The notes under the pieces are model-generated. The model saw only the letters and a program-made list of their open reading frames with translations, did no database searches and was not told where the DNA came from. From Enhydrobacter aerosaccus (GTDB lineage Bacteria; Pseudomonadota; Alphaproteobacteria; Reyranellales; Reyranellaceae): DNA of 64,000 nt. The position numbers and the translations under genes were made by a program. Below, piece after piece: positions 71 to 11,330 of the stretch (positions within the stretch are counted from its first letter, which is position 1; the number at the start of each line of letters is the position of its first letter). Location: assembly GCA_903832005.1 (NCBI GenBank), contig CAIKZO010000132.1, positions 26,035 to 90,034 on the forward strand. The letters run 5' to 3'.

Positions 71-1210
<1,140 letters not shown>

Positions 1211-1292
1211 GTGCCTGATCCTCCGGGCTGCCCAATCTCTGTCTTTGCAGAACTTTGGGCCTGTGGCGGGGGCTCCGCCAGTGACGGTTAGG

Positions 1293-1316
1293 TAGTTTAC
1301 CTTTACGTAAACGTCA
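1293..1316. promoter_or_regulatory. Candidate operator: nested palindromes TGACG..GTTTAC-CTTTAC-GTAAAC-GTCA (core TTTACGTAAA) in the divergent promoter region
   Basis: Perfect inverted repeat GTTTAC-N6-GTAAAC (1295..1312) with an embedded 10-bp palindrome TTTACGTAAA and outer TGACG/CGTCA arms. Located between the divergent acyl-CoA dehydrogenase (-) and a small secreted protein gene (+). An AT-rich -10-like stretch follows at ~1360..1375. Confidence 0.4.
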
Positions 1317-1390
1317 ATGTCCGCCTGCGGACCGACCCAAGGGCTGACTTCAGTGCAAATATCGTATATATTGCAGATGGGCAGGTAGAC

Positions 1391-1765
1391 TTGGGGAAGC
1401 AGAGCATTCTTGGCGCATGGCTAAGCACGGCCCTCGTGGCTTGCGTCTGCACGTCCGCCTTCTCGCAACAGCAGCAGCCGACCCGCTCGCGCGATACGCG
1501 CGGCAATGACGAACGTAGCGCGCAATTCCGCTGCCTCAACGACGCCAAGGTCGCCTATGCCAGCTATGCCGGCCCGGAGGCCGCGCGCGAGGCCGGACAG
1601 TCGGCGTTCATGATGTCCTGCGTCGTGGCCGCAATGCCCGACGACTGGTCCGCCGCGTCGCGCTATCGCAAGCGCGCGCAGAGCTTCGCCGAGACCGCGC
1701 AGGAGTCCGATCCCAAGATCGACAAGTGCCTGCTGACGGCCTGCCCGGCGGCGGCGGGCAAGTAA
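1391..1765 (+). CDS. Hypothetical secreted Cys-containing protein (signal peptide)
   Basis: 124-aa ORF with N-terminal signal peptide (LSTALVACVCTSAFSQ). No recognisable domain. Confidence 0.45.
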   Translation: MGKQSILGAWLSTALVACVCTSAFSQQQQPTRSRDTRGNDERSAQFRCLNDAKVAYASYAGPEAAREAGQSAFMMSCVVAAMPDDWSAASRYRKRAQSFAETAQESDPKIDKCLLTACPAAAGK

Positions 1766-1774
1766 ACTGCAACC

Positions 1775-2107
1775 TTGAAGGGTCGCGGGCCGTTGCCTGC
1801 CGACCCTCGGTTTTGTGCCGAAGGTGGCACACCGAAAGGATTTCCCTTGAACAAGACCCTGAAAGCGGCCGCGCTCGCCGTTGCCTTCTTCGGCATCACT
1901 TCCGCGTCCTATGCCGCGGACGTCGTCGTCCAGTTCGATCCCAACACCGTCCAGTACGGCTACACCGACGGCTATTGGAGCCGCACGCACGAGTGGCACC
2001 AGTGGGCGGCCCCGGAGCATGTCGATGTCTATCGCAAGGCTCCGAACGCGTCGTACTACGAATACAAGCACGACCGCGATCCCGACATGGGCTGGCGCGT
2101 CCGCTAA
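1775..2107 (+). CDS. Hypothetical small secreted protein, aromatic-rich; true start probably TTG near 1847
   Basis: Track ORF starts at TTG 1775. The signal peptide LNKTLKAAALAVAFFGITSASYA begins ~1847. Mature part is W/Y/H-rich. Confidence 0.4.
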   Translation: MKGRGPLPADPRFCAEGGTPKGFPLNKTLKAAALAVAFFGITSASYAADVVVQFDPNTVQYGYTDGYWSRTHEWHQWAAPEHVDVYRKAPNASYYEYKHDRDPDMGWRVR

Positions 2108-3621
2108 CGGAACTTCAAGCCGACGACCCGGACGATTCCGTCCGGCATCGACTTGAACCCTTCGAGTTTCGCGGTATGCGCGATCAGCATCTGCGAGTGG
2201 TAGAGATAGATCATCGATCCCTCTGCCAGGAACTTTGCGGTGATCTTCTCATAGATCGCCTTGCGCGCGGCGGGATCTGACACCGCCCGCGCTTCGGCGT
2301 GCCAGGCATCGAGTTGCTTGTCGCAGTAGTGGCCGAGGTTCTGCGGCGCGCCGCAGAGCTGGTGGATCACCGAATTGCCGTCGGGATCGCTGCGGCCGCT
2401 CCACCAGTTCATGTAGAGCTGGAAGCTGCCGTCCTCGCCCTCCTTCAACGCGGTCGCGCCTTCGACGACCTTGATCTTGAGGTCGAAGCCCGCGTCGGCC
2501 GCCATCGCCTGCAGCACCTCCGCGACCGAGCGCGTCTCCGGCGTGTTGACCACCATGAATTCGATCGGCAGGCGGCCAGTGATGCCGGCTTCCTTCATCA
2601 ACGCCTTGGCCTTGGCGATATCGCGCTTCGGTATCGGGAAGGCCTGCTGATAGTAGGGATGCTTCGGGTTGACCCACTGGTTGCCCGGGATGAACTCGCC
2701 GTTGAACACGACCTGGTTGATGACCTCGCGATCGAAGCTGAGGGCGAGGGCCTGCCGCACCCTCAGATCCTTGCCGAGCGGGTTATTTGACTTGGGCCCG
2801 TTGTCGACGTTGACGATCAGGCTGGTGAAGCCGAGCGTCACCGCCGTGCTCAGCTTCAGCTTCGGATCGCCGCGCACCGTCTTGATGTCAGTCGCCAGCA
2901 CACGTTCGATCAGGTCGAGGCCGCCCGCGCGCAGATTGGCCAGCCGCACGGTGGCATCGATGATCGGCGTGTAGACGATGCGGTCGATGAAGACCTGGTC
3001 CTTGTTCCAGTAGTCGGCGAACTTCTCGACCACGATCCGGTCCTGCTGGACTCTTTCCACAAACTTGTAAGGCCCAGCGCACACGGGCTTGAGACCAAAC
3101 TTGTCACCCGCCGCTTCGGCTGCCTTGGGCGAGACCATCATGCCGGCGCGATCGGCGAACTGCGCCGGCAGCGGCGAGAACGGCGCCGTCAGGTTGACCT
3201 TGATCGTGAGCGGATCCACGACATCGACACTGTCGATCGCGCCGATCTCCGCCCGCCGATACGAGCCCTTCATCTTGAGGTGCCGGTCGATCGAGTACTT
3301 GGCAGCCGCGGCGTCGAACGGCTCGCCGTCATGGAACTTCACACCGGGCCGCAGCTTGATGGTGAGCGCCTTGCCGGCGGCCGAGGTCTCGTAGCCCAGC
3401 GCCAACTGCGGCACGAGGTTCAGGTTCTCATCGATGTCGAAGAGCTTGTCGCAGATCGACGCAAAGACGATGCGCGTCGTGTAGCTACGTGACAGTGTCG
3501 GATCGAGCACGTCCGGATCGTCCGCGAGCCCGACGCGCAACGTCGTCGTCTGCGCGAAAGCGCCAGCAGCGGCGCACACAAATGCAGCCACCAACACCAA
3601 GCGAATACCAAGCCGGCCCAT
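2104..3621 (-). CDS. ABC transporter substrate-binding protein, family 5 (peptide/nickel/opine type)
   Basis: 505 aa with signal peptide and DppA/OppA-like SBP_bac_5 architecture. Confidence 0.85.
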   Translation of the reverse strand: MGRLGIRLVLVAAFVCAAAGAFAQTTTLRVGLADDPDVLDPTLSRSYTTRIVFASICDKLFDIDENLNLVPQLALGYETSAAGKALTIKLRPGVKFHDGEPFDAAAAKYSIDRHLKMKGSYRRAEIGAIDSVDVVDPLTIKVNLTAPFSPLPAQFADRAGMMVSPKAAEAAGDKFGLKPVCAGPYKFVERVQQDRIVVEKFADYWNKDQVFIDRIVYTPIIDATVRLANLRAGGLDLIERVLATDIKTVRGDPKLKLSTAVTLGFTSLIVNVDNGPKSNNPLGKDLRVRQALALSFDREVINQVVFNGEFIPGNQWVNPKHPYYQQAFPIPKRDIAKAKALMKEAGITGRLPIEFMVVNTPETRSVAEVLQAMAADAGFDLKIKVVEGATALKEGEDGSFQLYMNWWSGRSDPDGNSVIHQLCGAPQNLGHYCDKQLDAWHAEARAVSDPAARKAIYEKITAKFLAEGSMIYLYHSQMLIAHTAKLEGFKSMPDGIVRVVGLKFR

Positions 3622-3677
3622 GTCCCCTCCCGATCAGTCCTTCGGGAGGGACATTGCACGCTCTATGCCATTCCGAC

Positions 3678-5192
3678 CTATTCCGGTGTCGTGGCGCTCA
3701 TGCCCAGCATCGCGCGACGGCGCAGCCATTGGCTGGGGCGGTAGCGGTCGTCGCCGGTGATCGCCTGGATCTGCACCAGGATCTCGTGGCACTCCTTGAC
3801 GCCCAGCCAGTCGGCCAACGCCAGAGGCCCACGCGGATAGTTGAGGCCCAGGGTCATCGCGGTGTCGACGTCGGCGGCGGAAGCAATACCGATCATCGCC
3901 ATCTCGCAGCCGAGGTTGGCGATCATCGAGACCATGCGCTGGGCGATGAAGCCGGGCGAATCCTTGATCAGGGTCACCTTGGTGCCGGACTTGGCGAACA
4001 TCGCGGCCGCTGCATCGCGCACCGCGGCGTCGGCGCCGGGCGGCGTCATGATGGTGATACGCTTGGCGGTGTCGCCCGTTACGTCGACGGCAACGGTGCG
4101 CTTGGGATCGAGGCCACGCTCGATTGCTTCCGTCGTCGCGTCCTTGCCGATCGGCGCCACCAGGATCGGGCTCTTGCCGTCGTCGACCGCCAACGTCTCG
4201 GCGCCCGACGCAACGACCAGCGCCACCAGCTTCTCGTTGTGGCTGTCCATCACGACAGCCCTAGCGGCCGGTGCGACCGATGTCGTGTAGTCGGCGCCGG
4301 GATCGACCTTGGCACCCTTGGCGTCATAAGCGTACCAGCCGCCGCCAGTCTTGCGGCCGAGCTTGCCCGCGGCGAACAGGCTCTCGTGATAGGGGCTCGG
4401 CGTCATGCGCCGGTCGTGGAAGAAGCCTTCGTAGATGATCTTGCGCGCCGGGAAGTTCACGTCGAGGCCGGTCAGGTCCATCAACTCGAACGGGCCCATG
4501 CGGAAGCCACAGCAGTCGCGCATCACCGCGTCGATCTGCGACGCACTCGCCCTTCCCTCCTGGTAGATCCGCAAGCCTTCGGTGCCGATCGCCGTGCCGC
4601 CCAGGTTCACCAGGAAGCCCGGCGTGTCGCCCACGACCACCGGCACGCGAGTCTGGCGCTTGCCCAGCGCGACCATGGCGTCGACCACCCACTGCGCCGT
4701 GTCGGCCGCGCGGATCACCTCCACGAGCTTCATCAGCGGCACGGGATTGAAATAGTGCATGCCGCAGATGCGGTCGCGGTGCTTCAACGAGCGCGCGATC
4801 GAGGCGATGCGGATCGACGAGGTGTTCGATGCCAGGATCGCGTCGGGCGCGATCACTGCCTCGAGCTCGCCGAACAGTTTCTGCTTCACCTCGAGATTCT
4901 CGAACACCGCCTCGACCACGACGTGGCAGCCCTTGAGGTCCTCGATCTTGTCGGCAACGCCCAGATTGGCGTCGGCCTTCGCAACATCCGCGTCGGTAAG
5001 ACGTCCTTTGACAGCAAGGCCCTTCAAGGTCTCGACGATGGCGGCCTTCGCCTTGGCGGCGCCGCCGGGGGCGGCGTCAAACATGATCGCCTTGATCCCG
5101 CCCTGCGCCGTCACCTGCGCGATGCCGCGGCCCATGGCGCCGGTGCCGACCACGCCCACGGTCAGATCGGGGCGGTTGATATCGAGACTCAT
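3678..5192 (-). CDS. 3-hydroxyacyl-CoA dehydrogenase (long form with duplicated C-terminal domain)
   Basis: N-terminal Rossmann motif VGVVGTGAMGRGIA. 504 aa is typical of NAD-binding 3-hydroxybutyryl/acyl-CoA dehydrogenases with tandem C-terminal domains. Confidence 0.85.
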   Translation of the reverse strand: MSLDINRPDLTVGVVGTGAMGRGIAQVTAQGGIKAIMFDAAPGGAAKAKAAIVETLKGLAVKGRLTDADVAKADANLGVADKIEDLKGCHVVVEAVFENLEVKQKLFGELEAVIAPDAILASNTSSIRIASIARSLKHRDRICGMHYFNPVPLMKLVEVIRAADTAQWVVDAMVALGKRQTRVPVVVGDTPGFLVNLGGTAIGTEGLRIYQEGRASASQIDAVMRDCCGFRMGPFELMDLTGLDVNFPARKIIYEGFFHDRRMTPSPYHESLFAAGKLGRKTGGGWYAYDAKGAKVDPGADYTTSVAPAARAVVMDSHNEKLVALVVASGAETLAVDDGKSPILVAPIGKDATTEAIERGLDPKRTVAVDVTGDTAKRITIMTPPGADAAVRDAAAAMFAKSGTKVTLIKDSPGFIAQRMVSMIANLGCEMAMIGIASAADVDTAMTLGLNYPRGPLALADWLGVKECHEILVQIQAITGDDRYRPSQWLRRRAMLGMSATTPE

Positions 5193-7087
5193 GTCACTTC
5201 CTTTTTCATTGCTGTAGCGATTTCACCGAGCACGGCGGGATCCTCGATCGTGGCCGGCATGGTCCAGGGCTGGTTGTCGGCTATCTTCTGCATCGTGCCG
5301 CGCAGGATCTTGCCCGAGCGGGTCTTGGGCAGGCGCTGCACGACCAGCGCGCTCTTGAAGAAGGCGACCGGGCCGATGCGCTCGCGCACCATCTTCACCA
5401 CGTCGCCCACGATCTCCTCGTCCGGCCTGTTGACGCCCGTCTTCAGCACCAGCAGGCCGAGCGGCACCTGGCCCTTCAATTCGTCGGCAATGCCGATCAC
5501 GGCGCATTCGGCGACATCATTGTGCGCGCCCAGCACTTCCTCGATCTGGCCAGTCGACAGGCGATGGCCCGCGACGTTGATCACGTCGTCGACCCGCGTC
5601 ATCACCGAGACGTAGCCATCGTCGTCGATGAAGCCCGCGTCGCCGGTTTTGTAGTAGCCGGGGAACTCGGTCATGTAGCCCTGCTTGTAACGCTCGTCGG
5701 CATTCCACAACGTCGGGAACGTGCCCGGCGGCAGCGGCAGCCGGGCCGCAAGTGCCCCCACCTCGCCCGGCTTCATCGCATGGCCATTCTCGTCGAGCAC
5801 ATCGAGCTTCCAGCCGGGCGACGGCACCGACGTCGAGCCGAGCTTCACCGGCATCGGATCGAGGCCCTCGAAGTTGCCGCAGATCGCCCAGCCGGTCTCG
5901 GTCTGCCACCAGTGATCGACCACCCGCACGCCCAGCAATGTCATCGCCCACTCGACGGTCGGCGGATCGCCGCGCTCGCCCGCGAGAAACAGCGTGCGGA
6001 AATGGGAGAGGTCGTACTTCTTGATCAGCTTGCCGTCGGGATCCTCGCGCTTGATCGCGCGGAAGGCCGTCGGCGCGGTGAACAGCGCCATCGCCTTGTG
6101 CTCGGAGATCACGCGCCAGAAGGCGCCGGCATCGGGCGTGCCCACGGGCTTGCCTTCATAGAGGATCGAGGTCGCACCGTAGATCAGCGGCCCGTAGACG
6201 ATATAGCTGTGGCCCACGACCCAGCCGATGTCCGACGCGCACCAATAGACCTCGCCCGGCTTCACGCCGTAGAGGTTCTTCATCGACCATTGTAGCGCCA
6301 CGCAATAACCGCCGGTGTCGCGCACGACGCCCTTGGGATAGCCCGTCGTGCCGGACGTATAGAGAATGTAGAGCGGATCGGTCGCTGCCACCGGCACGCA
6401 CGCCGCGGGCTTCGCGTCCTTCACGGCCTCGCTCCAATCGAGGTCGCGGCCCGCGACCATCGTCGCCTCGCCTTGCGGGCGCTGGAACAGGATGACCCTC
6501 GGCACCTTGTGCGTTGCCATCTCAATCGCCTGGTCGAGCAGCGGCTTGTACTGGACGATGCGCGCAGGCTCGACGCCGCAGGAGGCGGTCAGCACGAGCT
6601 TGGGCGTGCAGTCGTCGATGCGGCTCGCCAGCTCCTTGGCGGCGAACCCGCCGAACACCACGGAGTGCACGGCGCCCAGCCGCGCGCAGGCGAGCATCGC
6701 CATCACCGCTTCCGGGATCATCGGCATGTAGATGATGACCCGATCGCCCTTGCCCACACCCTGTGCCGCGATCATGCCGGCGATCGCCGCCACGCGGTCG
6801 CGCAGCACGCGATAGGTGAAGCTCTGCTTGGAGTTGGTGACCGGCGAGTCGTAGATCAGCGCCAACTGGTCGGCGCGACCACCGTCAACGTGGCGGTCGA
6901 GAGCGTTATGGCAGGCGTTGAGTTCGCCGCCTCCGAACCAGCGATAGAACGGTGGATTGGCCGAATCGAGGATCTGCGTGGGCTGCTTGTCCCAATCGAT
7001 CGCCTTCGCCTGCTCGGCCCAGAATCCTTCCGGGTCGTTCAGCGAGCGCGCATGCAGTGCGCGGTATGTATCGCCAGCGGCCCCCAT
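5189..7087 (-). CDS. prpE: Propionate--CoA ligase / acetyl-CoA synthetase-like (PrpE type)
   Basis: 632-aa AMP-forming acyl-CoA synthetase. N-terminus (DPEGFWAEQAKAIDW) and length match the PrpE subfamily. Overlaps the upstream gene by 4 nt. Confidence 0.75.
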   Translation of the reverse strand: MGAAGDTYRALHARSLNDPEGFWAEQAKAIDWDKQPTQILDSANPPFYRWFGGGELNACHNALDRHVDGGRADQLALIYDSPVTNSKQSFTYRVLRDRVAAIAGMIAAQGVGKGDRVIIYMPMIPEAVMAMLACARLGAVHSVVFGGFAAKELASRIDDCTPKLVLTASCGVEPARIVQYKPLLDQAIEMATHKVPRVILFQRPQGEATMVAGRDLDWSEAVKDAKPAACVPVAATDPLYILYTSGTTGYPKGVVRDTGGYCVALQWSMKNLYGVKPGEVYWCASDIGWVVGHSYIVYGPLIYGATSILYEGKPVGTPDAGAFWRVISEHKAMALFTAPTAFRAIKREDPDGKLIKKYDLSHFRTLFLAGERGDPPTVEWAMTLLGVRVVDHWWQTETGWAICGNFEGLDPMPVKLGSTSVPSPGWKLDVLDENGHAMKPGEVGALAARLPLPPGTFPTLWNADERYKQGYMTEFPGYYKTGDAGFIDDDGYVSVMTRVDDVINVAGHRLSTGQIEEVLGAHNDVAECAVIGIADELKGQVPLGLLVLKTGVNRPDEEIVGDVVKMVRERIGPVAFFKSALVVQRLPKTRSGKILRGTMQKIADNQPWTMPATIEDPAVLGEIATAMKKEVT

Positions 7088-7110: not shown

Positions 7111-8076
7111 TTATTGGGAACTTATCGGAATGCCGGACGCCTTCACCAGCGCCGCGTTTGTCGCGATCTCCTTCTTGATCCGCTCGTCGAAAGCCCTGGG
7201 CTCGAGCAGGTCCGGCTCGGCGCCGAGCTGGGCAAAGCTCTCCTTCACCTTCGGCGTGGCGAAGGCCTTGACGGTCTCGGCATAGAGCTTGTCGACGATC
7301 TCGCGTGGCGTCCCGGCCGGCGCGAACATGCCGACCCAGAAGTCGTAGTTGGACTCAGGCACCCCCAGCTCGACCGTCGTCGGCAGGTCGGGCAAGGCCG
7401 TCGCCCGCTTCGAGCTGCCGATGCCCAGCGCGAGCAACCGCTTCTCGTTGATCATCGGCAGGCAGACATTCACCGGGCAGAAATAATAGTCGACCCGGCC
7501 CGCCAACACTTCGGTCACTGCCTCGGGCGTTCCCTTGAACGGCACGTGCAGGGCATCGATGCCCGCCCCGACACGGAAGCGCTCGGCACTCAACTGGTTG
7601 GCGGTGCCGACACCCGCCGAGGCATAGGTGAAGGCGCCGGGCTTCGCCTTGGCCGCGGCGACGAGTTGCTGCACCGTGGCGATGCCCCGCTCCGGAGAGA
7701 TGACGAGCGCCTGCGGCAACTGCGCCAACGGCGTGACGCCCATGAGATCGCGCTGCGTGTCGTAGGGCGTGTTGGGATAGGTGATCGGCGTCAGCGTGTA
7801 CGAGGCCGACTGCACCAGGATCGTGTAACCGTCCGGCTTGGCCCGGGCGACCGCGCCCATGCCGATCGTCCCGCCGGCGCCCGGCTTGTTGTCGACGATG
7901 AAGGGCTGGCCGAGCTGCTCGGAGAGCTGCGCCGCCACCGTGCGCGCCATCACGTCGGTCGCGCTGCCGGCCGTCAGCGGCACGACGATGTGGACCGGCT
8001 TGTCGGGCCACGACTGCGCCTCTGCGTGTCCCGTGCACAGAACCGCGGCCAGCGCGACCCACCCCAACTTATTCAT
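7111..8076 (-). CDS. Bug-family tripartite tricarboxylate transporter substrate-binding protein (TctC-like)
   Basis: 321 aa with signal peptide. Typical Bug/TctC sequence and size. Confidence 0.85.
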   Translation of the reverse strand: MNKLGWVALAAVLCTGHAEAQSWPDKPVHIVVPLTAGSATDVMARTVAAQLSEQLGQPFIVDNKPGAGGTIGMGAVARAKPDGYTILVQSASYTLTPITYPNTPYDTQRDLMGVTPLAQLPQALVISPERGIATVQQLVAAAKAKPGAFTYASAGVGTANQLSAERFRVGAGIDALHVPFKGTPEAVTEVLAGRVDYYFCPVNVCLPMINEKRLLALGIGSSKRATALPDLPTTVELGVPESNYDFWVGMFAPAGTPREIVDKLYAETVKAFATPKVKESFAQLGAEPDLLEPRAFDERIKKEIATNAALVKASGIPISSQ

Positions 8077-8096
8077 CTCGACCTTCCTCCCACCCC

Positions 8097-9998
8097 ATGT
8101 ATACCGTGCTTCGCGTCGAACGGGATGGGAACCGCGCTATGGCGAAGGCAAAGAAGCCGAAGAAAGCTGCGAAGCGAAAGACGCCGAAGGCGAAGAAGCG
8201 CGCGGTAAAGAAGCCGGTCGCCAAGAAGCCTGTTGCCAAAAAGAAGGCCGCCTCGGCCAAGATCGCCGCTCCCAAGCCGATCGCACGGCCGGCCTTCAGG
8301 CGCTCGTCCAAGAACCGCACCTCCGTCGCCCGCATGCCCGGCGCCCGCCCTGCTCCGCACAAGGCGGCATTGGCGGCGCACAATATCTACGAGCGCGATC
8401 TCGACAAGACCGCGGCCAACTACGCGGCCCTCACGCCGCTCCAGTTCATGGAGCGCACGGCCAGCGTCTACCCGGAGCATCTGGCGCTGATCCACGGCGA
8501 GCGGCGGCAGACCTGGGCGGAGACCTATGCGCGCTGCAGGCGGCTGGCCTCGGCGCTCTCCCAGATGGGCATCGGCGTCGGCGACACGGTGTCGATCATG
8601 GCACCCAACATTCCGGAGATGTACGAGGCGCATTTCGGCGTGCCGATGTCGGGCGGCGTGCTCAATGCGCTGAACACAAGGCTCGATGCGGCGATGCTGG
8701 CCTTCATTCTCGACCACAGCGAGACCAAGGTGCTGCTGGTCGACCGCGAATATCATCGCGTGATGACCGAGGCGCTGAGCCAGTGCAAGGTCCAGCCGTT
8801 CGTAGTCGACATCGACGACCCGCTGTGTGACGACCGCGCGCAGATCGGCGACACGACCTACGAGGAGTTCCTCGCGACCGGCACGCCCGACTACGAGTGG
8901 CAGTATCCGTCCGACGAATGGAACGCGATCTCGCTCAACTATACCTCGGGCACGACCGGCAATCCGAAGGGCGTCGTCTATCATCATCGCGGCGCCACGC
9001 TCTCGGCCTACAGCAACGCAGCACTTTGGGGCGTGGGCACGCATCCGGTCTATCTGTGGACCCTGCCGATGTTCCACTGCAACGGCTGGTGCTTCCCCTG
9101 GACGCTCGCCCTCGTCGCCGGCACGTCGGTCTGCCTGCGTCGCATCACCGCCGGCACGATCTACGAGGCGCTTGCCGACCATGACGTCACGCACATGTGC
9201 GGCGCACCGATCATCATGCAGGCGATCATCGCCGCCTCGCCCACCGAGCGCCGCACCTTGGCGCAGCGGGTCGAGTTCATGACCGCGGCCTCGCCGCCAC
9301 CGGCCGCCGTGCTCGAGGCGCTGGAGCAGCAGAACTTCAAGGTGACGCACGTGTACGGCCTCACCGAGGTCTACGGTCCGGCGACCATGTGCGCCTGGCA
9401 CACCGATTGGGACTCGCTGCCGCCCGCCGAGCAGGCGCGGCTCAAGGCGCGGCAAGGCGTGCGTCATACCGCCGAGGATGGCGTCACGGTGATGGATCCG
9501 ATCACCATGAAGGAAGTGCCGCGCGACGGCACGACCATGGGCGAGGTGATGTTCCGCGGCAATCTCGTGATGAAGGGGTACCTCAAGAACCCCAAGGCCA
9601 CGAAGGATGCGTTCGAGAACGGCTGGTTCCACTCGGGCGACCTCGGCGTCCTGCACGAGGACGGCTACCTCGAACTGCGCGACCGCTCCAAGGACATCAT
9701 CATCTCGGGCGGCGAGAACATCTCGACCATCGAGGTCGAGGGCGTGATCATCAAGCACCCCGCCGTGGCCAACGTGGCCGTCGTCGCCAAGCCCGACGAG
9801 AAGTGGGGCGAGACGCCCTGCGCCTTCGTCGTGCTGAAGCCGGGCGCCTCGGCCACCGCCGAAGAGATCGTGGCGCATTGCCGCGCCCACCTCGCGAGTT
9901 TCAAGTGCCCGCGCTTCGTGGTGTTCCGCGACCTGCCGATGACATCGACGGGCAAGGTCCAGAAATTCATCCTGCGCGAGTGGGCCAAAGCCGTCTAG
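8097..9998 (+). CDS. AMP-dependent acyl-CoA synthetase/ligase with in-frame lysine/alanine/proline-rich (histone H1-like) N-terminal extension; catalytic core starts at 8334
   Basis: Residues ~16-60 are KAKKPKKAAKRKTPKAKKRAVKKPVAKKPVAKKKAASAKIAAPKP with no stop before the AMP-binding domain. From Met80 (ATG 8334) the protein is a standard ~554-aa medium-chain acyl-CoA ligase (TSGTTGNPKG motif). Confidence 0.8.
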   Translation: MYTVLRVERDGNRAMAKAKKPKKAAKRKTPKAKKRAVKKPVAKKPVAKKKAASAKIAAPKPIARPAFRRSSKNRTSVARMPGARPAPHKAALAAHNIYERDLDKTAANYAALTPLQFMERTASVYPEHLALIHGERRQTWAETYARCRRLASALSQMGIGVGDTVSIMAPNIPEMYEAHFGVPMSGGVLNALNTRLDAAMLAFILDHSETKVLLVDREYHRVMTEALSQCKVQPFVVDIDDPLCDDRAQIGDTTYEEFLATGTPDYEWQYPSDEWNAISLNYTSGTTGNPKGVVYHHRGATLSAYSNAALWGVGTHPVYLWTLPMFHCNGWCFPWTLALVAGTSVCLRRITAGTIYEALADHDVTHMCGAPIIMQAIIAASPTERRTLAQRVEFMTAASPPPAAVLEALEQQNFKVTHVYGLTEVYGPATMCAWHTDWDSLPPAEQARLKARQGVRHTAEDGVTVMDPITMKEVPRDGTTMGEVMFRGNLVMKGYLKNPKATKDAFENGWFHSGDLGVLHEDGYLELRDRSKDIIISGGENISTIEVEGVIIKHPAVANVAVVAKPDEKWGETPCAFVVLKPGASATAEEIVAHCRAHLASFKCPRFVVFRDLPMTSTGKVQKFILREWAKAV

Positions 9999-10031: not shown

Positions 10032-11330
10032 ATGCCCACGCTCATCGCCACCACCCGGAGCGGCGTCCGCCCTCTGGGCGTGCGCGGCGAGCCCTTGCAC
10101 AATGCGGCAGCGCAGATTCGACGCGTGGTCCGTCGGCGGCTGGGCGATGCCGCGGCCGACCTGCTGGCCGAACCGCAGCTCCATGAAGATGGCAGCGCGA
10201 TCGACTGGTACGCCGACTGGACGGGCGACGTCCGTCAGGTGGCGAACCTCCCGCCCGCCGAACGGAGCGCAATCCTCTCCCGGGTCGATGCCTCCCTCGC
10301 CGACATCGCGAGCCTCGGCCAGACGCTGAAGGGCGCGGGCGACGGCGACGACATGGGCGTGGTCGGCCGCTCGCTGCAGCTTGCCGCCAAGCGACCCGCC
10401 GAGTCGTTCGTCTTTCTGGTGGGCGATCGGCCCGCGGTCGTGTGTTGGGGCTACGAGAAGGAAGCGGCCAACGCGCTGCTGCCGACGTCCTTGCCCAAGG
10501 CCCCGATCGCCGTCCCGCAGCATCAGCCGGTGCTCGCCGCGACGCGGCTGCCGATTTCCGTGCCCGCTGCCGCAACGACGATCCCCTGGGTGCGGACCCT
10601 GCTCGCGGCGCTGCCGCTGTTGCTGTTGTTGCTGGCCGGTGCGTGGCTGCTGCGTGACTGGCTACCGGGCGATCCGGCGACCGCGATGGCGCTGCACGAA
10701 GGCCCTGCCCGTCCGCCCGCGCCAACCATCGCCGATCCGCTGCCGGTATTGAAGGCCTCGCTCGCCACCGAGCAGGCGCGCGCCAAGGCGTTGGCGATAG
10801 AGATCGGCGATATCCAAGCCGAGTTGAAGAAACGCGTCGCCGACTGCAAGCCGCCTGAACCACCCAAGCCGCCGCAGACGGCGATGGTGCAGCCCAAGCC
10901 CGCCCCGCCGCCGTCTCCTCCACAGCCGCAACCGGTGCCACGTGCGCCGGGCGACAATCGCCTGCGCATGCCGAACCAGCCGACCAACGACTATTCCTTC
11001 ATGGCCGGCTGCTGGCGCACCGATCCGTTCCGGCATGAGACCGTGCAGGCGCAGCCCGGTATCTCGTCCTACTGCTTTGACGCCAGCGGCCGCGGCCAGC
11101 TCGAGTGGCGGCGCGGACGCACGGCCTGCCGCACGCGCGCCCAGGCGCAGTTCACCGGGTCGAACCTGGCGCTGCGCGACGGCGACACGACCTGCAACGA
11201 CGGCTCGCACTGGTATGCCGACCAGCTCACCTGCCAGCGCGGCGCCGACAATGTCGCCTTCTGCAGCGGCAGCTCGCGCGGCGCTTATGGGCCGACCTCC
11301 TGGACGGTCAATCTACACAAGGTAGACTAA
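10032..11330 (+). CDS. Hypothetical bitopic membrane protein: cytoplasmic N-domain, single TM, Pro-rich linker, coiled-coil segment, Cys/Trp-containing C-terminal domain
   Basis: 432-aa ORF. TM helix LLAALPLLLLLLAGAWLL at ~aa 190. PPEPPKPPQTAMVQPKPAPPPSPPQPQPVP linker. C-terminal ~110 aa contain 8 Cys. No family recognised. Confidence 0.55.
   Translation: MPTLIATTRSGVRPLGVRGEPLHNAAAQIRRVVRRRLGDAAADLLAEPQLHEDGSAIDWYADWTGDVRQVANLPPAERSAILSRVDASLADIASLGQTLKGAGDGDDMGVVGRSLQLAAKRPAESFVFLVGDRPAVVCWGYEKEAANALLPTSLPKAPIAVPQHQPVLAATRLPISVPAAATTIPWVRTLLAALPLLLLLLAGAWLLRDWLPGDPATAMALHEGPARPPAPTIADPLPVLKASLATEQARAKALAIEIGDIQAELKKRVADCKPPEPPKPPQTAMVQPKPAPPPSPPQPQPVPRAPGDNRLRMPNQPTNDYSFMAGCWRTDPFRHETVQAQPGISSYCFDASGRGQLEWRRGRTACRTRAQAQFTGSNLALRDGDTTCNDGSHWYADQLTCQRGADNVAFCSGSSRGAYGPTSWTVNLHKVD

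Follow-up and report, generated by a model that had tools for sequence, protein, structure and literature searches.

Is a lysine-rich, histone-like tract next to an acyl-CoA synthetase gene really part of the enzyme, and, if it is, what would such a tail do on a metabolic protein? The question is raised by a gene of Enhydrobacter aerosaccus, a soil alphaproteobacterium of the Reyranella group, lying in a 64-kb stretch of DNA (the window, by which we mean the whole stretch that was analysed), for which an earlier note had described a K/A/P tract fused in frame to an AMP-binding domain. The tract and the domain do share one frame, with no stop codon between them, within the longest open reading frame (8097..9998, 633 aa), and the peptide quoted in the note is the exact frame-3 translation of positions 8142-8279. 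Positions 8139-8282 of the window translate to MAKAKKPKKAAKRKTPKAKKRAVKKPVAKKPVAKKKAASAKIAAPKP, and this reading frame continues into an acyl-CoA synthetase of the PRK08162 type. The features of the locus are collected in Table 1.

Table 1. Coordinates of the features at the synthetase locus (positions in the window).
Feature	Position	Strand	Details or basis
Complete CDS, 619-aa acyl-CoA synthetase with N-terminal extension	8139..9998	+	Stop codon 9996-9998
True start codon ATG, protein opens MAKAKK	8139..8141	+	Orthologue N-termini
Shine-Dalgarno-like GGGAA	8127..8131	+	7 nt upstream of ATG 8139
K/A/P-rich tract, aa 1-48	8139..8282	+	19 Lys, 0 acidic; fast-evolving, length variable
15-bp tandem repeat AAGAAGCCGGTCGCC (KKPVA), 2.4 copies	8208..8243	+	Tandem Repeats Finder
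Conserved Arg-rich linker, aa 49-83, ARPAFRRSSKNRTSVARMPGARPAPHKAALAAHNI	8283..8387	+	Alignment A1, N-terminal listing
Catalytic ANL-type acyl-CoA synthetase body, aa 84-619	8388..9995	+	Net charge -15, pI 5.7
Upstream in-frame ATG opening the longest ORF, rejected as start	8097..8099	+	
Internal ATG, Met66, not a conserved start	8334..8336	+	
Divergent intergenic region and 5' leader, 62 bp	8077..8138	.	DNA alignment A3
TctC/Bug-family solute-binding protein gene, divergently transcribed	7111..8076	-	Pfam PF03401, E 3e-73

The extension is translated as the N-terminus of the enzyme

Several lines of evidence establish that the extension is the translated N-terminus of the enzyme. The codon periodicity check proposed in the earlier note gives an in-frame GC3 of 0.81-0.85 in the tract, with 0.90 in the remainder of the gene. 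Compared with L081, a relative with 96% identity, dN/dS is 0.10 in the linker, 0.06 in the catalytic part and 0.05 in the tract, where the value represents six substitutions in all (5 synonymous and 1 non-synonymous). The same DNA alignment holds two 15-bp indels, each in frame, L081 lacking one 15-bp KKPVA unit; the tract evolves via in-frame slippage of short repeats. The orthologue comparison that the note had also proposed points the same way: the 120 closest homologues (Reyranellaceae, 77-96% identity, 611-647 aa) all have the tract as a Lys-rich open frame, and none supports a start equivalent to 8334. Two alternatives put forward in the note thus fall away, a cryptic separate K-rich peptide because no stop codon precedes the domain, and a non-coding AAG-rich spacer because of the GC3 periodicity, the dN/dS of 0.05-0.10, the exclusively in-frame indels and the conserved MAK start.

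The start codon is ATG 8139, which gives a protein of 619 aa. The N-termini of 95 unique orthologues open with MAK (86), MAR (5), MVK (3) or MAT (1), alignments A1 and A2 show no variation at M1 and A2, and L001, L002, L003 and L005 carry GGGAA(G) 6-9 nt 5' of the MAK ATG. ATG 8097, where the earlier note had placed the beginning of the feature, was rejected as a start, being AAG in L003, while 116 of the 120 closest database homologues begin at the MAK position; it is also 20 nt away from where the divergent tctC starts, behind CT-rich sequence. The note's independent start at ATG 8334 would indeed yield 554 aa, but did not hold up either: the position is Met in just 44 of the 95 unique orthologues (otherwise L 20, V 12, P 7, T 5, A 4, I 2), and no purine-rich site lies upstream. 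Automatic pipelines give this gene three different starts (8097-type, 8139-type and shorter).

The synthetase gene stands in a fatty-acid oxidation neighbourhood and adjoins the TctC solute-binding protein gene; the divergent tctC is found in the same place in L081 and L003, against both of which positions 8100-8135 of the intergenic region are nearly invariant. A promoter scan of 7900-8450 found no sigma-70 consensus site, and its minus-strand terminator-like match inside the tract scored no better than shuffled sequences; a search for structured RNA or riboswitches in 7900-8500 matched no Rfam family, even with E = 1 as the limit. Locally, G+C drops to 0.58-0.61 in the tract, compared with about 0.67-0.71 in adjacent windows, in a genome of 66% G+C.

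The catalytic body is that of a PRK08162-type synthetase

Downstream of the extension, the protein is an otherwise canonical, acidic short/medium-chain acyl-CoA synthetase of the PRK08162 type. It scores 914.1 bits against NCBIfam NF006020/PRK08162 (cut-off 677), with positions 3-540 of the 545-position profile covering residues 82-618, and matches Pfam PF00501 (AMP-binding, aa 119-496, E 3.4e-75) and PF13193 (AMP-binding_C, aa 546-620, E 3.1e-25), both in the numbering of the 633-aa ORF. The ANL core motifs YTSGTTGNPKG (A3), YGLTEVYGP (A5), RDRSKD (A8 hinge) and PMTSTGKVQK (A10, with the catalytic Lys) are present, and they are invariant in alignments A1 and A2. At 619 aa the protein exceeds the canonical length of about 545 aa, residues 1-81 falling outside the NF006020 profile; this extra length is the feature under study, and the catalytic body stays within the family. 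A relative in the PDB is M. tuberculosis FadD13 (3R44). A link to PHA ligases of the PP_0763 type may exist. The enzyme was also compared with the NF005426 equivalog for DmdB (3-(methylthio)propionyl-CoA ligase), which was rejected at 322 bits against a cut-off of 822. As a side observation, the DmdB name that UniRef gives to the homologue P0061, and to some others, is unsupported as a function.

A predicted disordered polycation selected for charge

The 83-aa extension contains 21 K, 22 A, 10 P and 8 R, and not one Asp or Glu, for a net charge of about +29. Lys is strongly enriched, with 19 in the first 48 residues compared with 3.7% in the catalytic part (binomial P ~3e-15), and the absence of Asp/Glu from 83 residues departs from a background of 11.8% (P ~3e-5). 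It is the sole stretch with at least 8 Lys per 30 aa in the six frames of the window, and the flanks of related loci hold no further K-rich tracts.

The earlier note's likening of the tract to histone H1 and AlgP is borne out by composition, which is K/A/P-dominated and acid-free as in H1, and fails at the level of homology, Pfam HC2 (PF07382) reaching only 12.1 bits (E 0.22) against the extension with a cut-off of 40; a Pfam search of the clade 2 tails described below likewise returned no relevant H1-like profile. The K-rich 47-mer used alone as a query gave 4 candidates, none of which scored, low-complexity words probably not being indexed. Similarly, what the note called a KAKKP repeat tract is K/A/P-rich, but it is weakly repetitive, with a single 15-bp unit (KKPVA) in 2.4 copies, and it forms only the first of two parts, the second being the Arg-rich linker. 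The tails of orthologues show irregular K-x-K, AKK and PKK patterns with no long tetra- or pentapeptide array.

The first 83 residues or so are predicted to be an intrinsically disordered polycation. In an AlphaFold2 model built with 144 sequences, residues 1-97 have a pLDDT of 28-49 and no secondary structure, residues 1-82 contain no helices of four or more residues, much of the core of the N-terminal domain is at 80-96, and the conserved linker is not predicted to dock onto the catalytic body. Mean pLDDT was 48 with 54 close orthologues and 65 with 144 sequences, and because models of this quality are modest, the low values in the tail are weak evidence of disorder. The net charge of the catalytic domain is -14 and -9 in extended orthologues and -12 +/- 6 in non-extended ones; being alike with and without the tail, it does not suggest that tail and body have co-evolved, and an intramolecular electrostatic switch is therefore unsupported. 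Behind its RR motif a Tat signal peptide has an uncharged h-region of 12-20 residues and an AxA cleavage site. We considered such a signal, suggested by F-R-R-S-S-K, and rejected it because no hydrophobic region follows the twin arginines: after R54-R55 comes SSKNRTSVARMPGARPAPHK, which is charged and Pro-rich. The enzyme itself requires cytoplasmic ATP and CoA.

Distribution among orthologues

The extension is lineage-restricted relative to the family. It is absent from 72 of 80 species-level orthologues, whose first residue lies 2-10 aa ahead of the Y-D/E-x-D-L motif, and the representatives of 50%-identity clusters are 540-568 aa long, with their own residue 3-10 aligned to query residue ~80-90. 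Beside the clade of the present enzyme (clade 1) there is a second, Rhizomicrobium-type clade (clade 2) with analogous tails, in which 116 of 120 homologues have at least 593 aa and the listed N-termini are K/R/A/P-rich; a third lineage, L033, has an analogous tail as well. In bootstrap trees clades 1 and 2 were each monophyletic in 100 of 100 replicates and were grouped together in 0 of 100. An RPAPH-x9-Y linker motif is common to clade 1 and to an L007-type subset of clade 2, the other clade 2 members lacking it; as a sequence likeness, this sharing is too weak to argue either for a common origin or for convergence of the linkers.

The charge of these tails varies little. The 92 unique tails of clade 1 are 75-111 aa long, with a net charge of +29 (25-35) and 0.13 acidic residues each, and the 113 unique tails of clade 2 are 54-103 aa long, with a net charge of +28 (range 18-34). 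In clade 1 the linker residues R54, R55, K58, R60 and R70 are invariant (alignment A1). The tail, with almost no aromatic residues either, is under selection for charge and not for sequence.

A possible electrostatic tether

On balance, we consider it somewhat more probable than not that the N-terminus translated from ATG 8139 is a disordered, charge-selected polycation that tethers the synthetase to nucleoid DNA/RNA or to polyphosphate/PHB granules. The tail would act as a multivalent electrostatic tether, holding the enzyme on a cellular polyanion, and acyl-CoA production would thereby be localised or concentrated there. Polyanion binding and localisation are suggested by analogy with the tails of AlgP, PhaF, Hlp, Ku and H1, and nucleoid DNA/RNA would be the most likely target, then polyphosphate or PHB granules, then the membrane. 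Against a tether stands the nature of the host, a metabolic enzyme that is not known to need DNA; the characterised K/A/P tails found in our literature searches are all on DNA-binding proteins or phasins, and the searches returned no acyl-CoA synthetase linked with a Lys-rich tail.

The polybasic tail could instead hold the enzyme on the anionic phospholipids of the inner membrane, close to the uptake of fatty or organic acids (vectorial acylation), in the manner of peripheral-membrane FadD. Acyl-CoA synthetases are frequently peripheral membrane proteins, FadD13 of M. tuberculosis reportedly using a basic surface patch; the adjoining tctC and the fatty-acid oxidation neighbourhood fit this setting, and with a net charge of +29 the tail would adhere to anionic surfaces of any kind. 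Well-studied polybasic membrane anchors, however, pair charge with hydrophobic residues or a lipid, and these tails have 0.28 aromatic residues each and few hydrophobic residues, with no helices of four or more residues predicted in positions 1-82 of the present protein. The K/A/P composition is moreover typical of tails that bind nucleic acids and polyphosphate, and we regard a membrane anchor as unlikely.

We are equally doubtful that the tail has no specific partner and serves as an aid to solubility or expression, either as an entropic bristle or as an A-rich, weakly structured 5' coding region, its charge being a by-product of AAG-rich codons. The low G+C content of the tract, its poorly conserved sequence with a two-fold variation in length, and the MAK(R/G/A)K opening, which fits the usual preferences at first codons, would all agree with such a role. 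An effect on initiation, however, needs only the first ~10-15 codons, and the tails have 54-111; nor is the predicted mRNA structure around ATG 8139 (-19.2 kcal/mol) any weaker than around the other ATGs (-14.3 and -17.3 kcal/mol). Some 200 unique tails keep within a narrow band of net charge and exclude acidic residues, dN/dS at short divergence matches the low value of the catalytic domain, and the Arg-rich linker is conserved in sequence, which all counts against this reading.

The use of both ATG 8139 and ATG 8334 in this strain, yielding a tailed protein beside the canonical 554-aa one, each at its own location, strikes us as quite improbable. The shorter product would fit the canonical family length, and besides the 44 orthologues that share the in-frame Met, another 32 of the 95 have V or L there, potentially encoded by GTG, CTG or TTG. 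Nevertheless, no Shine-Dalgarno-like sequence precedes 8334, the position is P, T, A or I in 18 of the 95, and 43 of the 95 have no internal Met anywhere in the extension. As Met66 sits within V-A-R-M-P, a conserved motif of the linker, the protein itself accounts for its conservation.

Finally, mis-annotation, under which 8139-8333 would be an AAG-rich spacer that codes for nothing, or a small peptide gene of its own, and the enzyme would begin at 8334, can practically be discarded: high-G+C DNA commonly holds low-complexity open frames, and long open Arg-rich frames do lie upstream of the non-extended L021, L048 and L078, but this reading is contradicted by the coding evidence given above (no intervening stop codon, GC3 periodicity, dN/dS of 0.05-0.10, solely in-frame indels), by a frame and MAK start kept in more than 200 unique homologues of two clades, and by the poor conservation of Met66.

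Returning to the tether to nucleoid or granules, a far-reaching extension of it may be imagined, which we consider a long shot. A synthetase resident on the nucleoid (or on polyphosphate/PHB granules) would supply acyl-CoA or acyl-AMP locally, feeding the acylation of nucleoid proteins, and the ~20 lysines of its own tail could be acylated in cis by the acyl-adenylate. If true, the enzyme would be a bacterial counterpart of the chromatin-bound ACSS2 of eukaryotes; the charge of the cis-acylated tail, and with it the tethering, would serve as a readout of short-chain acid supply; and the charge-matched tails in clades that group in 0 of 100 trees would mean repeated selection for nucleoid or granule localisation.

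Significance and comparison with known systems

Studies of Lys/Ala/Pro tails have until now dealt with DNA-binding proteins and phasins, whose existing contact with the nucleoid these tails tune. In the present case such a tail has long been retained on an ordinary metabolic enzyme, in hundreds of orthologues of two deep alphaproteobacterial clades. The family thus offers a clean natural test case of whether bacteria place metabolic enzymes by means of polycationic disordered tails, and also of selection acting on charge rather than on sequence. On the practical side, it exposes conflicting automatic start calls and unsupported DmdB names.

A close likeness is to AlgP and PhaF of Pseudomonas, whose tails are also K/A/P-rich, acid-free, predicted-disordered polycations of similar charge density. 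AlgP has a KPAA tail (net +55) that binds DNA and is required for the spacing of polyphosphate granules, and PhaF has a net charge of +35 (PMC9239181), compared with +29 here; DNA binding by the AAKP tail of PhaF is non-specific (PMC5658603). Through these tails a functional domain is anchored on DNA or on polyphosphate/PHA granules, as the synthetase would be by analogy. They differ in being C-terminal, long and built of regular tetrapeptides (25 perfect KPAA in AlgP), on structural or regulatory proteins, whereas the synthetase tail is N-terminal, barely repetitive, followed by a conserved Arg-rich linker and carried by a metabolic enzyme.

Mycobacterial Hlp/HupB and Ku and the HU of Deinococcus likewise have lineage-specific, fast-evolving, Lys-rich low-complexity extensions, that of Deinococcus HU being N-terminal as in the synthetase. 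Such PAKKA tails modulate DNA binding by Ku, Hlp and HU, are missing from orthologues elsewhere and are considered to have arisen repeatedly (PMC3553676). Their hosts, however, are all DNA-binding proteins, and what the tail modulates is a DNA contact already in place; no nucleic-acid function is known for the synthetase. With the C-terminal domain of the eukaryotic linker histone H1 the tail shares K/A/P composition, disorder and the lack of acidic residues, but the synthetase has neither the globular winged-helix domain nor a nucleosome context, and the likeness is compositional only.

Among adenylate-forming enzymes, eukaryotic aminoacyl-tRNA synthetases of the LysRS/AspRS type also bear a disordered, Lys-rich N-terminal appendage; the appended domain is described as absent from other lineages and as binding the polyanion tRNA non-specifically (PMC6213541). 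They belong to an unrelated superfamily, and tRNA is their own substrate, whereas the substrates of acyl-CoA synthetases are small molecules. Canonical PRK08162 enzymes, such as those of Bosea, Xanthobacter, Stella and Pseudomonas, have bodies 57-67% identical to the present one, with the same motifs, and many Alphaproteobacteria also have the divergent PrpE-like gene next to theirs, but these enzymes begin 2-10 residues before Y-D/E-x-D-L and have no extension. ACS1 of Pseudomonas putida, an acyl-CoA synthetase located on PHA granules (PMC5658603), provides a precedent for such an enzyme on the surface of a storage granule, although no polycationic tail is reported for it.

A translated lysine-rich extension on an acyl-CoA synthetase

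Within the long open reading frame 8097..9998 (+), the lysine-rich peptide shares its frame with the AMP-binding domain and no stop intervenes, so that ORF translation confirmed the in-frame fusion described in the earlier note. Counted from ATG 8139, the first 48 residues hold 19 lysines, against 3.7% lysine in the catalytic part (binomial P ~3e-15), Asp and Glu are absent from residues 1-83 (P ~3e-5), and across all six reading frames of the window (64 kb) no second stretch has at least 8 Lys per 30 residues. The tract is weakly repetitive, with Tandem Repeats Finder returning one 15-bp unit (AAGAAGCCGGTCGCC, KKPVA) in 2.4 copies.

Four independent lines of sequence evidence indicate that the tract is translated. 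First, GC at codon positions 1/2/3 is 0.50/0.48/0.81 in 8139-8282 and 0.51/0.55/0.85 in 8139-8333, a coding-like third-position bias upstream of 8334 that agrees with the rest of the gene (0.62/0.46/0.90) and with neighbouring genes; AAG encodes 18/20 lysines in the tract and 19/21 in the catalytic part. Second, comparison with L081, a contig encoding a 96%-identical protein, gave dN/dS of 0.05 in the K-rich part (few changes, 5 synonymous and 1 non-synonymous), 0.10 in the Arg-rich linker that follows (small numbers, 9 and 3) and 0.06 in the catalytic part; the counts are small, the direction is nonetheless clear. Third, the only indels relative to L081 are two 15-bp events, the loss of one KKPVA unit and a duplication of ARMPV, and the frame stays open across five species-level Reyranella-type loci; the tail lengthens and shortens through in-frame repeat slippage. 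Fourth, the 120 closest database homologues (77-96% identity; named sources Reyranella, Reyranellaceae and Enhydrobacter aerosaccus) are all 611-647 aa long, and all 120 carry a Lys-rich N-terminus. A non-coding AAG-rich spacer, which had also been suggested, is contradicted by the codon-position bias, the dN/dS values, the in-frame indels and the conserved MAK start.

The N-termini of orthologues place the start codon at ATG 8139: among 95 unique sequences, 86 begin MAK, 5 MAR, 3 MVK and 1 MAT, and four gene calls extend farther upstream yet hold the same MAK internally. GGGAA(G) lies 6-9 nt 5' of the MAK ATG in the window (8127-8131) and at the related loci L001, L002, L003 and L005. ATG 8097 was rejected, as L003 has AAG there and the start codon of tctC, which runs divergently, is 20 nt away. 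ATG 8334 (Met66), the start proposed earlier as an alternative, was rejected as well: Met occupies this position in only 44/95 unique orthologues (L in 20, V in 12, P in 7, T in 5, A in 4, I in 2), 43/95 have no internal Met in the whole extension, and nothing purine-rich precedes ATG 8334. Orthologues therefore do not begin at the equivalent of 8334, and the Lys-rich segment upstream is conserved; the outcome named in the note as refuting the fused-tract reading did not occur. Dual initiation, with Met66 as a second start, may occur in this strain but cannot be the conserved function.

Conserved properties of the tail

Residues 1-48 are K/A/P-rich and drift fast in sequence and length, and residues 49-83 form the Arg-rich linker, in which R54, R55, K58, R60 and R70 are invariant and V63, R65, P71 and K75 near-invariant among 54 sequences of clade 1 (the Reyranella-type tailed orthologues). 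Tail charge is held constant: 92 unique clade 1 tails (75-111 aa) have a net charge of +29 (25-35) with 0.13 acidic residues per tail, and 113 unique tails of clade 2 (the Rhizomicrobium-type; 54-103 aa) one of +28 (18-34) with 0.42. Hardly any residues are aromatic (0.28 and 0.39 per tail, respectively). In the window protein, the tail (21 K + 8 R) precedes a body of net charge -15 (pI 5.7), giving the whole protein a pI of 9.1. AlphaFold2, run with a 144-sequence alignment, assigned residues 1-97 a pLDDT of 28-49 and no regular secondary structure, and much of the N-terminal domain core 80-96; since the model is moderate overall (mean 65), this is supporting rather than decisive for tail disorder. 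These data show the tail to be a polycation that is translated, under selection, free of acidic residues and confined to certain lineages.

Enzyme body and gene neighbourhood

The tail precedes an ANL-type acyl-CoA synthetase body, which scores 914 bits with NCBIfam NF006020/PRK08162 (cut-off 677); in the protein of 619 aa, the profile of 545 positions begins to align at residue 82. The name DmdB on some homologues is unsupported, as the equivalog model scores 322 against a cut-off of 822. Alignment to the closest structures in the PDB (Thermus LC-FACS 1ULT, DmdB 6IHK/6IJB, FadD13 3R44) begins no earlier than residue 102.

The setting is one of fatty-acid oxidation, as the opposite strand carries a PrpE-like acyl-CoA synthetase gene as well as genes for an acyl-CoA dehydrogenase and a 3-hydroxyacyl-CoA dehydrogenase. 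The minus-strand cluster at 71-5192, which ends before the PrpE-like gene, is of beta-oxidation type and may give a clue to the class of substrate that both CoA ligases use. The divergent PrpE-like neighbour is common to ~20 non-extended alphaproteobacterial orthologues, which marks the Reyranella gene as an orthologue with an acquired tail, not a different enzyme. The two ligases form a conserved gene pair in the window and ~20 alphaproteobacterial species-level loci (60-95% identity; L003, L008, L011, L012, L014, L015, L017, L018, L019, L024, L032, L036, L046, L049, L051, L053, L055, L061, L068, L079, L081), with tctC inserted between them in Reyranella. The tctC-synthetase leader, GTATACCGTGCTTCGCGTCGAACGGGATGGGAACCG, is near-invariant in L081 and also in L003, where the proteins are only ~84% identical. 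It holds an imperfect inverted repeat (TTCG-CGT-CGAA) and a GTATAC palindrome, matches neither a sigma-70 consensus nor Rfam, and may be an operator or a shared promoter of the divergent genes. The ORF directly 3' of the synthetase combines a hydrophobic stretch (LLAALPLLLLLLAGAWLL) with a middle rich in Pro (PPKPPQTAMVQPKPAPPPSPPQPQPVP) and a C-terminal part rich in Cys, and is kept beside it in L002, L003, L005 and L081 (62-96% identity).

Features in the window and at related loci
Feature	Sequence	Position	Strand	Remark
Acyl-CoA dehydrogenase	window	71-1210	-	
ORF	window	1421-2071	-	no Pfam match
Family-5 solute-binding protein	window	2104-3621	-	
3-hydroxyacyl-CoA dehydrogenase	window	3678-5192	-	
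PrpE/ACAS_N-type acyl-CoA synthetase	window	5189-7087	-	632 aa; divergent, upstream of the tailed synthetase
tctC (TctC/Bug-family solute-binding protein)	window	7111-8076	-	divergent
Leader	window	8100-8135		candidate operator or promoter
Tailed acyl-CoA synthetase	window	8139-9998	+	619 aa
KKPVA repeat	window	8208-8243		
ORF	window	10032-11330	+	432 aa; no Pfam match
Lys-rich extension	L033	~843-1034	+	uncultured alphaproteobacterium
Small protein with K/A-rich tail	L022	2026-2475	-	Aquabacterium MAG
Small protein with K/A-rich tail	L057	~1808-2520	-	Aquabacterium MAG

Distribution and origin of the tails

Cluster representatives at 50% identity have lengths of 540-568 aa, their residue 3-10 aligning to query residue 80-90, and at 72/80 species-level genomic loci the protein is non-extended, beginning 2-10 residues ahead of the Y-D/E-x-D-L motif. 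The best-scoring representative, P0121 (958 aa), carries a different, large N-terminal fusion on the same enzyme family, its synthetase body beginning at residue 443. Lys-rich extensions occur in three places among the 80 loci: the Reyranella clade L001-L005 (catalytic part 83-85% identical), the Rhizomicrobium-type L007 and L054 (61-64%), and L033. Clade 2, sampled by a search seeded with L054, is also large: 116/120 closest homologues (72-95% identity) reach at least 593 aa, and the N-termini listed are K/R/A/P-rich tails of 54-111 aa opening MAKRK or MAPRK.

In a tree of catalytic domains by neighbour-joining only (98 sequences, 534 columns, 100 bootstraps), clades 1 and 2 were each monophyletic in 100/100 replicates and grouped together in 0/100; clade 2 lies at a distance of 0.28-0.35 from non-extended Hyphomicrobiales-type orthologues versus 0.49 from clade 1. 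This pattern calls for repeated gain of the tail, its movement between lineages, or many losses. An RPAPH-x9-Y motif shared by clade 1 and part of clade 2 hints at a common origin of the tails; the motif is absent from other clade 2 members.

The L033 extension (MGSARKVKPVKPKAKSPKSLPKQKAKAATRSKPAAAKAKPVKVAKG) is sequence-unrelated and has no Arg-rich linker, and its catalytic domain falls outside both clades. In two Aquabacterium MAGs, a small protein whose N-terminal part is globular and whose tail is rich in K and A (AAKKAPAKKAPATKAVKPKA; VKKAVVKKAVAKKAAAKKVAAKKAAA) is encoded ~0.5-1 kb upstream of a non-extended orthologue, an H1-like tail beside, not on, the same enzyme gene, which may be coincidence. 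No other enzyme encoded in ~110 kb around the gene and its relatives carries a similar tail.

Possible function and comparison with known tails

We infer, from characterised tails of the same composition, that the tail would tether the enzyme electrostatically to a polyanion. AlgP (net +55) binds DNA and localises to polyphosphate granules, its KPAA tail being required for granule spacing, and PhaF has a net charge of +35 (PMC9239181); the AAKP tail of PhaF, which has non-specific affinity for DNA, connects PHA granules with the nucleoid (PMC5658603), and PAKKA tails alter how Ku, Hlp and Deinococcus HU bind DNA (PMC3553676). Nucleoid DNA or RNA would be the most likely target and polyphosphate or PHB granules the next, ACS1 being a known granule-bound acyl-CoA synthetase (PMC5658603). 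The membrane is less likely, as the tail is poor in hydrophobic and aromatic residues. The tail may instead serve expression or solubility alone, a role that would leave the narrow charge band, the low dN/dS, the tail length and the conservation of the linker poorly explained.

We found no description of an acyl-CoA synthetase with such a tail in the searched literature, where reviews place Lys-rich tails on 'unrelated DNA-binding proteins' (PMC3553676); public databases already contain tailed sequences, under the plain annotation acyl-CoA synthetase. The interest is moderate, since the tail sits on a metabolic enzyme and is charge-conserved over hundreds of orthologues, in clades that do not group together. 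The earlier description as histone-H1/AlgP-like stands for composition and fails for family membership: there is no profile match (HC2 12 bits versus 40) and no regular repeat array. The synthetase tail also differs from H1, AlgP, PhaF and PAKKA tails in its N-terminal position and in a host that is not DNA-binding, and would resemble them in its way of working.
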